From: Escherichia phage WPEC2
Sequence record: PV691511.1
Direction: 5' to 3' (one strand)
DNA: 64,000 bases
Part shown: piece by piece, positions 3,481 to 4,455 of the stretch
Layout: the number at the start of each line of letters is the position of its first letter
Position numbering within the stretch: the stretch's first letter is position 1
Notes under the pieces: model-generated
The model's database searches: none
Told to the model about the DNA's origin: nothing
What the model saw: only the letters and a program-made list of their open reading frames with translations
Made by a program: the position numbers and the translations under genes

Positions 3481-4455
3481 TTAAACAGCAGCTTCTTCTT
3501 TTTCAGGGAAGATAAAGCTTGCAATAACACCAAGAGCTAATGTGCCTAGAACAATCATCAGACTTACGTTAGGGGAAATATCATGCGGGAGGAATGACCA
3601 CTTGGCATGAAGTGTTTCACCGAACGGGTGATACATAAGTTTAGCACCAACAAACACCAGAACCACAGCAACAGCTTTCTCTAAGTGAACTAGATATTTA
3701 ACAGCTACACTTAATACAAAGAAAAGTGCACGTAAACCAAGAACAGCCATCAGCATTGCAGAATAAACTAGCAGAGGTTCTTGTGTCACACCGATCACAG
3801 CCGGAACTGAATCAAAAGAGAAGACAATATCTGTAAGCTCAATAACAAACACACAAAGAAGAGCAGGAGTTGCATATTTGATACCATTCTTAATCGTAAT
3901 GAACTTTTCACCATCCAGTGCACTGTGCACAGGCAGAATTTTACCTACTAAACGAACAGCCCAATGTTTAGAGTAGTCAATATCCTCTTCTTCATCTCCA
4001 CCTTTGATGATAGCCACGGCAGACCAAGCTACAATCAAACCGAACAACACTTGAACCGACCAATGAAGGTTAAACAAAGCGGTGCCTGCTGCAACAAAAA
4101 TACCTCGGAAGACAATGGCTCCTGCAATCCCCCAAAGTAAAATCTTATGTTGGAGATGTGTGCTCTTAATTCCAAAGCTTGCAAAAATTGCCATGAACAC
4201 CATTAGGTTATCTACAGAAAGACTCTTTTCCAAGACATAACCACTTAGGAAAAGCGCGGCGAACTCTTTACCATGTTCTACCCAAATGAATGCGTAATAT
4301 CCTAAAGCTAAAGCAATCCAAAAAACAGACCAAAGCAAAGCAGATTTGATTCCAATTTCTTTATTCTCTTTATGACCAAAGAAATCGATACCAATAGACA
4401 ATGCTAAAATACCAACTAAAACAACTACATCGATAATTGGGAAACCAAGTTGCAT
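3481..4455 (-). CDS. TerC-family integral membrane protein
   Basis: Multiple hydrophobic helices and the EKSLSVDN motif plus ELTDIVFSFDSVPAV segment characteristic of TerC/Alx-type proteins. Confidence 0.65.
   Translation of the reverse strand: MQLGFPIIDVVVLVGILALSIGIDFFGHKENKEIGIKSALLWSVFWIALALGYYAFIWVEHGKEFAALFLSGYVLEKSLSVDNLMVFMAIFASFGIKSTHLQHKILLWGIAGAIVFRGIFVAAGTALFNLHWSVQVLFGLIVAWSAVAIIKGGDEEEDIDYSKHWAVRLVGKILPVHSALDGEKFITIKNGIKYATPALLCVFVIELTDIVFSFDSVPAVIGVTQEPLLVYSAMLMAVLGLRALFFVLSVAVKYLVHLEKAVAVVLVFVGAKLMYHPFGETLHAKWSFLPHDISPNVSLMIVLGTLALGVIASFIFPEKEEAAV

Follow-up and report, generated by a model that had tools for sequence, protein, structure and literature searches.

The window analysed here, a stretch of 64,000 nucleotides from Escherichia phage WPEC2, carries at positions 3481..4455 of the minus strand an open reading frame for a 324-residue protein, which begins with ATG according to the ORF listing and which we refer to as terC. 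A ribosome-binding site, GAGGAG (4462..4467, minus strand), lies 6 nt 5′ of the start codon and is kept in the alignment with the Justusliebigvirus phage ALITA. The gene directly 3′ of terC encodes a 116-aa protein (3088..3438, minus strand; PHROG 27498), and the gene directly 5′ of it encodes a 73-aa protein with two transmembrane (TM) segments (4535..4756, minus strand; PHROG 16065). The segment of the window from 2400 to 6200 is 100% identical to the Escherichia phages WPEC1, WPEC4 and WPEC6 and 95–97% identical to many genomes of Phapecoctavirus (Stephanstirmvirinae). Because of these matches terC can be placed in a virulent, phAPEC8-like myovirus, and the phage origin assumed for the gene by a first-pass annotation, made from the sequence alone, holds.

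The product of terC is, with near certainty, a member of the TerC family. In a profile search, residues 71–276 align with positions 2–177 of the 178 positions of the Pfam TerC model PF03741 (E = 4e-40, 137.9 bits against a gathering score of 27.8), and residues 10–318 align over the full length of the NCBIfam model TIGR03718, ‘TerC/Alx family metal homeostasis membrane protein’ (positions 6–302 of 303; E = 4.9e-95, 318.5 bits against a cut-off of 246.4). The protein also matches PHROG 7180 (E = 1e-96). It scores far below the cut-offs of the NCBIfam models for both the YkoY subfamily (65.5 bits against 138.5) and the YjbE subfamily, and the Pfam search yielded no significant family other than TerC. 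The first-pass annotation had recognized a TerC/Alx-type protein by the motif EKSLSVDN, which occupies residues 76–83, and by multi-pass topology. Its identification is borne out by the two models, both of which score above their curated cut-offs, and the profile search against the TerC family returned TerC rather than a different transporter family.

The multi-pass topology is evident from two predictions. Kyte–Doolittle hydropathy gives nine peaks, centred on residues 14, 48, 87, 114, 141, 208, 243, 264 and 306, and an AlphaFold2 model built with 30 homologues is all-helical (pLDDT 79, pTM 0.78), with helices at residues 7–27, 36–61, 63–94, 99–128, 132–151, 197–224, 227–251 (broken), 258–285 and 295–315 and a small β-hairpin within the long central loop. 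The distribution of Lys and Arg residues fits an arrangement of nine TM segments with the amino terminus outside and the carboxy terminus inside, which would match the N-out/C-in topology proposed for Escherichia coli Alx (PMC10197570).

Mn2+ export by E. coli Alx requires E86, D92, E213, D216 and D222, substitution of which abolishes it (PMC10197570). These residues align with E76, D82, E206, D209 and D215 of phage TerC. The first two fall in EKSLSVDN, and the other three in a second motif, ELTDIVFSFDS, that begins at residue 206, such that both acidic patterns of the family (E-K-S-L-x-V-D-N and E-x-x-D-x-x-F-x-x-D-S-x-P) are present. Residues E76, K77, D82, N83, E206, D209, D215, S216 and P218 are invariant in 30 sequences, with homologues 53–88% identical to the phage protein. 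No solved structure was found with which the predicted metal site could be compared. The dN/dS ratio of terC is 0.05 against an allele of 99% identity and 0.03–0.18 against alleles of 68–88% identity, with synonymous sites saturated in the distant pairs. All 174 phage homologues found cover at least 80% of the query. The invariant site residues, the low dN/dS values and the coverage of the homologues together argue that purifying selection maintains terC as a working gene.

Homologues occur in 174 of 50,697 phage records (0.34%). The first-pass annotation had described such proteins as rarely reported in phages, which is apt as to their number; as to reporting, however, a PHROG family, GenBank names and published phage Ter clusters already exist.

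The 79-bp spacer 5′ of terC contains a putative σ70-type promoter site (TTGACA, 16 nt, TAAGAT; 4504..4531, minus strand). ALITA keeps this site as TTGACT...TATAGT although its terC is only 71% identical. Transcripts from such a promoter would begin with a leader of about 42 nt, in which a single hairpin of 8 bp occurs, GCGGGGAA-TAG-TTCCCCGC (4473..4491, minus strand), for which RNA folding gives –17.8 kcal/mol (z = –2.6). In ALITA the hairpin reads GCGGAGGA-TTG-TCCTCCGC, with two pairs altered on both sides and pairing kept, a compensatory pattern drawn from two lineages only. Beginning 7 nt past the terC stop codon is an intrinsic-terminator-like hairpin, AGCCTCC-TTCG-GGAGGCT, followed by ATTTTAT (3450..3474, minus strand); the shortness of the T-run suggests that the terminator is leaky. 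ALITA and the Klebsiella phage FBKp34 have a hairpin at the matching place, with other stem and loop sequences. Promoter, leader hairpin, ribosome-binding site and terminator would make terC a self-contained transcription unit, although promoter and terminator scans across the region gave no enrichment over shuffled sequences and the conservation of the flanking signals rests on few lineages.

A riboswitch-controlled leader of the Alx type was considered and ruled out, because the spacer is only 79 nt long and holds the promoter-like site. A leader of about 42 nt leaves no room for a metal-sensing yybP-ykoY/PRE riboswitch, whose aptamer requires at least 100 nt. Rfam searches for yybP-ykoY gave no match, neither at the gathering threshold over the whole window nor at E values up to 10 over positions 3300–5400, but the E. 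coli alx leader used as a positive control was also negative in both modes. Because a genuine alx leader was missed too, the Rfam result is uninformative and the argument from leader length alone counts.

Beyond the 73-aa protein, the minus strand carries three further genes on the 5′ side of terC. The nearest encodes a 161-aa macro-domain protein resembling DarG (4769..5254; PHROG 335, E = 9e-53; PADLOC DarG, E = 1.5e-9), for which the Pfam Macro match is marginal (21.6 bits, slightly under the gathering score of 22). It is followed by a gene for a 275-aa PRTase_3 protein, a ComF-like phosphoribosyltransferase (5267..6094; Pfam PF15610, E = 2.3e-41) with an intact PRPP-loop motif, FIDDVNITGT, and then by one for a 218-aa hydrolase of the HAD superfamily (6087..6743; PHROG 14393 ‘hydrolase’, E = 3e-117), whose match to the Pfam Hydrolase model is weak and under the gathering score (E = 4e-4). 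The PRTase_3 and HAD genes, which share the strand of terC and lie 0.8–2.3 kb upstream of it, are succeeded in the direction away from terC by NrdG and NrdD. Linkage of PRTase_3 with terC is found in Phapecoctavirus, Justusliebigvirus, FBKp34 and IMG/VR loci, and the HAD gene adjoins PRTase_3 in all loci compared (the Phapecoctavirus phage tuntematon, ALITA, FBKp34 and IMG/VR). The macro gene occurs together with terC in the IMG/VR viral loci L011–L016. Phosphoribosyltransferases and HAD hydrolases are listed components of Ter systems (PMC7824862).

The typical downstream Ter genes have to be sought in relatives, since a profile search of the window found no TelA, vWA-TerF or TerD. In the sister phage vB_EcoM_01, terC is followed on its 3′ side by genes for a SprT-like protein, TelA (PF05816), a vWA-TerF-like protein (PF10138) and TerD (PF02342), up to the endolysin gene, with TerD (E = 3e-28) about 6 kb downstream of terC. 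The corresponding matches in relatives have E values of 1e-33 for TelA and 2e-37 for the vWA-TerF-like protein, and TerD lies at about this distance downstream of terC in tuntematon, ALITA, FBKp34 and loci L012–L016 too. In the window, positions 1–1270 match the tRNA block of Phapecoctavirus phages with 100% identity, and at about 1268–1270 this block is joined to a truncated SprT-like gene. This rearrangement, a junction that no record in the phage collection spans, cuts off TelA, vWA and TerD and accounts for their absence; the phages WPEC1, WPEC4 and WPEC6 have TelA elsewhere in their records. As the three genes lie outside the window, cooperation between them and terC is argued from relatives. 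The combination of the PRTase_3, HAD and macro genes linked to terC with the TelA, vWA-TerF and TerD genes of relatives is a context that the first-pass annotation had missed.

The set of TerC, TelA, vWA-TerF, TerD, HAD and PRTase_3 is kept in tuntematon, ALITA and FBKp34, in the last of which the Ter genes are rearranged and their order differs. TerB, TerA and TerZ were not found within 10 kb of terC in the Stephanstirmvirinae loci (L011–L016), so these loci do not represent a canonical terZABCDEF set. In a sample of 50 TerC-encoding IMG/VR loci with their 10-kb neighbourhoods, 16 have a TerC that shares 41% identity or more with the phage protein, and 15 of these also encode TerD, TerB, TelA or vWA-TerF; another Ter gene is present at 9 of the 34 loci with more distant TerCs (at most 38% identity), and TerC stands alone at the other 25. 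Other phage families show their own combinations. In Grimontviridae, TerC is accompanied by TerB or TerD, with genes of PRPP-synthetase-like and NAMPT-like proteins alongside, and a Vibrio phage of the Schitoviridae has the arrangement TerD...TerB–TerC–TerB; TerB next to a phage TerC was seen only in lineages other than Stephanstirmvirinae. That the linkage outlasts rearrangement and is found again in several phage families speaks for a functional module.

The terC gene itself is exchanged among relatives. Comparison of the window with tuntematon reveals flanks that are 93–100% identical, whereas identity falls to 61–78% in 150-nt bins over the terC ORF (4401 to 3502), with the transitions falling in the bins that hold the ends of the ORF. 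The divergent tuntematon TerC is 95% identical as a protein to that of ALITA. The drop over terC, together with this match, argues that two diverged terC alleles circulate within Phapecoctavirus as single-gene cassettes. A second divergent patch in the same comparison, at 5151–4852, lies in the macro gene.

Several comparisons place phage TerC with the proteins of Ter systems rather than with the Alx protein of the host. It is 34% identical to E. coli Alx, 47.8% identical over the full length to the TerC of the terZABCDEF operon of IncHI2 plasmids and 52–55% identical (BLASTP) to a broad set of proteobacterial proteins. Among the latter, the TerCs of Glaesserella and Roseospira (53–55%) are the two cellular relatives whose neighbourhoods were inspected, and both belong to Ter systems. 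The Roseospira locus encodes, in order, a C–C lyase, four TerD proteins, TerB, TerC, a HAD protein, TerD, two vWA proteins, TerY_C, PP2C and a kinase; in Glaesserella, TerC is followed by DUF4328, two vWA proteins, TerY_C, PP2C and a kinase. A neighbour-joining tree, which lacks bootstrap values and is suggestive only, sets the TerCs of Stephanstirmvirinae and Grimontviridae next to those of Ter systems and far from Alx. By these sequence comparisons, phage TerC is of Ter-system type rather than of host-Alx type. Recent capture from the E. coli host was rejected as an origin, given 34% identity to Alx against about 55% for the best cellular matches (Pasteurellaceae and assorted Proteobacteria).

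The closest precedent is another phage protein, gp124 of FBKp34 (phiKp34), which is 88% identical to WPEC2 TerC; the same combination of terC, terF-vWA, terD and telA has been described for that phage (PMC8386662). Phage Ter clusters have likewise been described in PhiPsa374-like Pseudomonas phages (PMC9796965) and in Caulobacter, Acinetobacter and other jumbo phages (PMC7824862), and nothing essential distinguishes the WPEC2 cluster from these.

TerC of plasmids, both of the IncHI2 R478 type and of the virulence plasmids of Klebsiella pneumoniae, shares the Pfam family and NCBIfam subfamily of the phage protein, and its gene is similarly linked with genes for TerD-family, vWA, PRTase and HAD proteins. 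The phage set differs from the plasmid operon in having TelA and a short vWA-TerF-like protein without TerB, TerA and TerZ, and in having a PRTase_3 where the plasmid PRTase is 380 aa long. No ATP-grasp protein or HpcH/citrate-lyase-type aldolase was seen in the phage Ter loci, apart from a plasmid-type ATP-grasp with PRTase in L052 only. The phage gene also differs from its plasmid counterpart in its position in a virulent phage and in its own promoter-like site. Like phage TerC, E. coli Alx belongs to the TIGR03718 subfamily and has nine predicted TM segments and the five acidic residues, but alx has a long leader that senses pH and Mn, in place of a 79-nt spacer with a promoter-like site inside, and is unlinked to Ter genes. 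The Bacillus subtilis proteins MeeF (YceF) and MeeY (YkoY) are TerC family members of a different subfamily, with seven TM segments rather than nine. The yceF gene shares its operon with genes for TerD-like and TelA-like proteins, a linkage comparable to that of phage terC.

Functional data on relatives come from several bacteria. Deletion of terC in K. pneumoniae lowers resistance to Te(IV), Zn(II), Mn(II) and phages (PMC12054061), Vibrio TerC exports Mn, and MeeF and MeeY of B. subtilis mediate Mn efflux and metalate exoenzymes at the Sec translocon (PMC10550928). Plasmid ter operons confer phage inhibition and colicin resistance (cited in PMC8386662, PMC9796965 and PMC12054061). The functions of phage ter genes have been called unknown (PMC9796965), and Iyer et al. 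proposed that these genes act in competition with superinfecting phages (PMC7824862). The roles in ion homeostasis and superinfection exclusion put forward in the first-pass annotation are ideas already in print in the latter paper.

The explanation that we favour overall, and consider probable, is that TerC is a divalent-cation transporter that forms the membrane part of a Ter module carried by the phage. What the sequences show directly is membership in the family, conservation of the site residues and of the flanking signals, purifying selection and linkage of the genes. For the substrate, the timing of expression, the cooperation with other Ter proteins and the biological role, we infer the following by analogy with Alx, MeeF/MeeY and the TerC of ter operons. 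The intact inner-membrane protein with its nine TM segments would use the intramembrane site of E76, D82, E206, D209 and D215 to carry a divalent cation, most likely Mn2+ and perhaps Zn2+, out of the cytoplasm into the periplasm. Mn, Zn and tellurite-related effects compete as indications of what the TerC of ter operons itself transports, and transport of a divalent cation by the phage protein is probable by this analogy. With a putative promoter, leader, ribosome-binding site and terminator of its own, terC would be expressed as part of the phage programme, probably at an early stage and through the host RNA polymerase, the leader hairpin acting as a stabilizing element alongside a strong ribosome-binding site and a leaky terminator.

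That TerC works together with the phage Ter genes is, on balance, what we expect, if by a small measure. The protein would be the membrane component of a module that includes the PRTase_3, HAD and macro proteins encoded upstream, joined in normal relatives by the TelA, vWA-TerF-like and TerD proteins encoded downstream. By analogy with plasmid ter operons, this module may alter the envelope or the metal status of the cell, with the outcome that competing phages or colicins are excluded or that the infected cell is kept stress-tolerant until lysis. Such a role in exclusion or stress protection is offered only tentatively. A stronger version, which we regard as speculative and improbable, would make the Stephanstirmvirinae Ter block a conflict system operated by the phage with TerC as its effector, in which a signal-gated metal flux excludes phages or colicins or neutralizes host defence. 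A nucleoside-like signal made by PRTase_3 and HAD, or sensing of Ca2+ or another metal by TerD, would gate the flux through TerC, and the two swapped terC alleles would reflect an arms race over TerC specificity.

Alternatively, TerC may act independently of other Ter genes, as an Mn2+ exporter like Alx or MntP or as a metallochaperone like MeeF and MeeY. During infection it would then lower cytoplasmic Mn2+ or supply Mn2+ to enzymes of the periplasm or membrane, such as those of the envelope or of lysis, and its linkage with TelA, TerD and PRTase would be mere co-location in a region of accessory genes. The protein passes the TerC/Alx subfamily model and conserves all of the Alx export residues, its gene has promoter-like and terminator-like signals that would allow it to be expressed alone and is swapped as a single-gene cassette between conserved flanks, and stand-alone TerCs form the majority among the distant viral loci (25 of 34). 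Metalation of exported enzymes by MeeF and MeeY (PMC10550928) offers a precedent for the second activity. We nevertheless judge this possibility rather unlikely, as FBKp34 has retained the gene set despite rearrangement, unrelated phage families repeatedly pair TerC with TerD or TerB, and the closest cellular relatives reside in Ter loci whereas identity to Alx is only 34%.

Two further readings start from the cellular roles of Ter proteins. The phage copies might be decoys that counter a Ter or TerY-P type defence of the host, for example by engaging in complexes that do not function or by depleting the signalling metabolite or metal. Cellular Ter systems do inhibit phages (PMC7824862, PMC8386662, PMC12054061), the nearest cellular TerC relatives sit beside TerY–PP2C–kinase triads, among the phage neighbours are DarG-like macro and AbiEi-like proteins with an anti-defence appearance in PADLOC, and two diverged terC alleles exist within one genus. 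The invariant transport-site residues and low dN/dS are better suited to a working transporter, however, and TerC has no PADLOC match; indeed, no PADLOC defence-system model matches TerC, TerD, TelA, vWA or PRTase_3. Moreover, the listed hosts include common laboratory strains such as E. coli K-12, which are not known to carry a ter operon, and we consider interference of this kind highly improbable. Even less credence attaches to literal tellurite resistance, by which TerC would protect the infected cell from Te(IV). This reading draws on the many records that annotate a ‘tellurium resistance protein TerC’ and on the lowered Te(IV) resistance of the K. pneumoniae terC deletion (PMC12054061), but the phage set is without TerB, TerA and TerZ, tellurium resistance from phage ter genes has been judged unlikely (PMC9796965) and tellurite would hardly exert selection on a virulent coliphage.

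Dozens of GenBank records already give homologues of the phage protein the name ‘Integral membrane protein TerC’, ‘alx’ or ‘tellurium resistance protein TerC’. Because of these annotations, and because a cluster has been described around the 88%-identical phiKp34 gene, terC is nothing new as a genomic observation. A literature search yielded no paper joining phAPEC8 with TerC, and its sole match for Phapecoctavirus with TerC was irrelevant. What our analysis adds is modest, namely the flanking signals, the compensatory hairpin, the cassette exchange, the residue conservation and the affinity to Ter-type rather than Alx-type proteins. The finding of a TerC protein is correct and ordinary, and its value is mainly as an experimental handle on the physiological function of Ter systems, a question of 30 years’ standing. 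A virulent coliphage that is genetically tractable makes an uncomplicated setting in which to study what Ter modules do, and this one combines a compact Ter set with natural allelic variants and a terC gene that has its own promoter-like site.

The small proteins encoded on either side of terC differ in their distribution. The 73-aa protein is homologous to a 68-aa protein of ALITA (E = 7e-27) and is conserved in Stephanstirmvirinae only; no counterpart is present in Grimontviridae or beside terC of FBKp34. The idea of a universal small membrane partner encoded 5′ of terC was rejected on this basis, the 64-aa upstream ORFs of Grimontviridae being unrelated. The 116-aa protein is absent from the matching place in ALITA and is encoded directly 3′ of terC in the rearranged FBKp34 as well (E = 2.5e-28).

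Comparison of the terC region with that of Phapecoctavirus tuntematon, which like the present phage has a Phapecoctavirus genome, indicates that terC is swapped as a single-gene cassette between genomes of this type. Specifically, nucleotide identity across the terC ORF (positions 3502-4401) is 61-78%, against 93-100% in the flanks, and the protein encoded by the tuntematon allele is 95% identical to that of the Justusliebigvirus ALITA. Part of the macro-domain gene (5151-4852) also aligns to tuntematon at 63-71% identity between flanks of 93-100%.

The macro-domain gene (4769-5254, minus strand) encodes a 161-aa protein that matches the PADLOC DarG model over residues 1-160 (E=1.5e-9) as well as PHROG 335, which is labelled 'phosphatase'. 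The protein could be an anti-DarT hydrolase acting on ADP-ribosyl-DNA, or it could process ribose phosphates as a member of the Ter biosynthetic trio, formed by the PRTase_3, HAD and macro genes upstream of terC. Motif I of the HAD-like hydrolase (6087-6743, minus strand) reads FDVWNT. Phosphatases usually carry this motif in the form DxDxT, and thus the second Asp is swapped for Trp. On this reading of motif I, the enzyme may differ from a standard phosphatase. Next to it on the same strand, a 201-aa protein (6745-7350) matches two PADLOC AbiEi antitoxin models over residues 29-200 (E=8e-13 and 1e-11) and has no match in a Pfam search; this protein may be a phage-encoded antitoxin mimic.

Directly downstream of terC lies a gene for a 116-aa protein containing the sequence CCGSGSGE (3088-3438, minus strand). 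Its counterpart in Klebsiella phage FBKp34 (locus L010, 10014-10376; E=2.5e-28) is also directly downstream of terC, even though the FBKp34 genome is otherwise rearranged. In ALITA, the 116-aa protein is missing from this place. The gene may be a TerC-associated gene.

Further to the left, the window opens with a Phapecoctavirus tRNA block (1-1270) that includes five tRNAs (122-685) and is 100% identical to Mt1B1_P17, ESCO37, WPEC4 and WPEC6. At positions ~1268-1270 the block directly abuts a 3′-truncated SprT-like gene, whose ORF runs past the junction to 1109. The corresponding place in normal relatives is occupied by TelA, which in WPEC6 would correspond to window positions 159-1268, and no record in the phage collection searched spans the junction. 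This arrangement reflects either a genuine rearrangement or deletion, or else an artefact of assembly.

As a positive control for the riboswitch search we used the alx leader of E. coli K-12 (locus L003, 1700-2200), where Rfam 15 missed the known alx Mn/pH riboswitch even with E values up to 10. Rfam 15 negatives for alx-type leaders, as run here, should not be trusted as riboswitch evidence.

In Grimontviridae-like phages (loci L005, 4239-7903, and L017-L020, L025 and L041), terC directly adjoins genes for PRPP-synthetase-like and NAMPT-like proteins, a pair resembling the phage NAD+ reconstitution pathway, and TerB or TerD is encoded close by.

Near terC in the window, a 170-aa ORF (2467-2979, minus strand) read from an internal start gives MKKLALILIGCIFLTACDD..., which carries a lipobox-like signal (LTAC) and, after it, a stretch rich in G, S and Q; its product is probably a lipoprotein.
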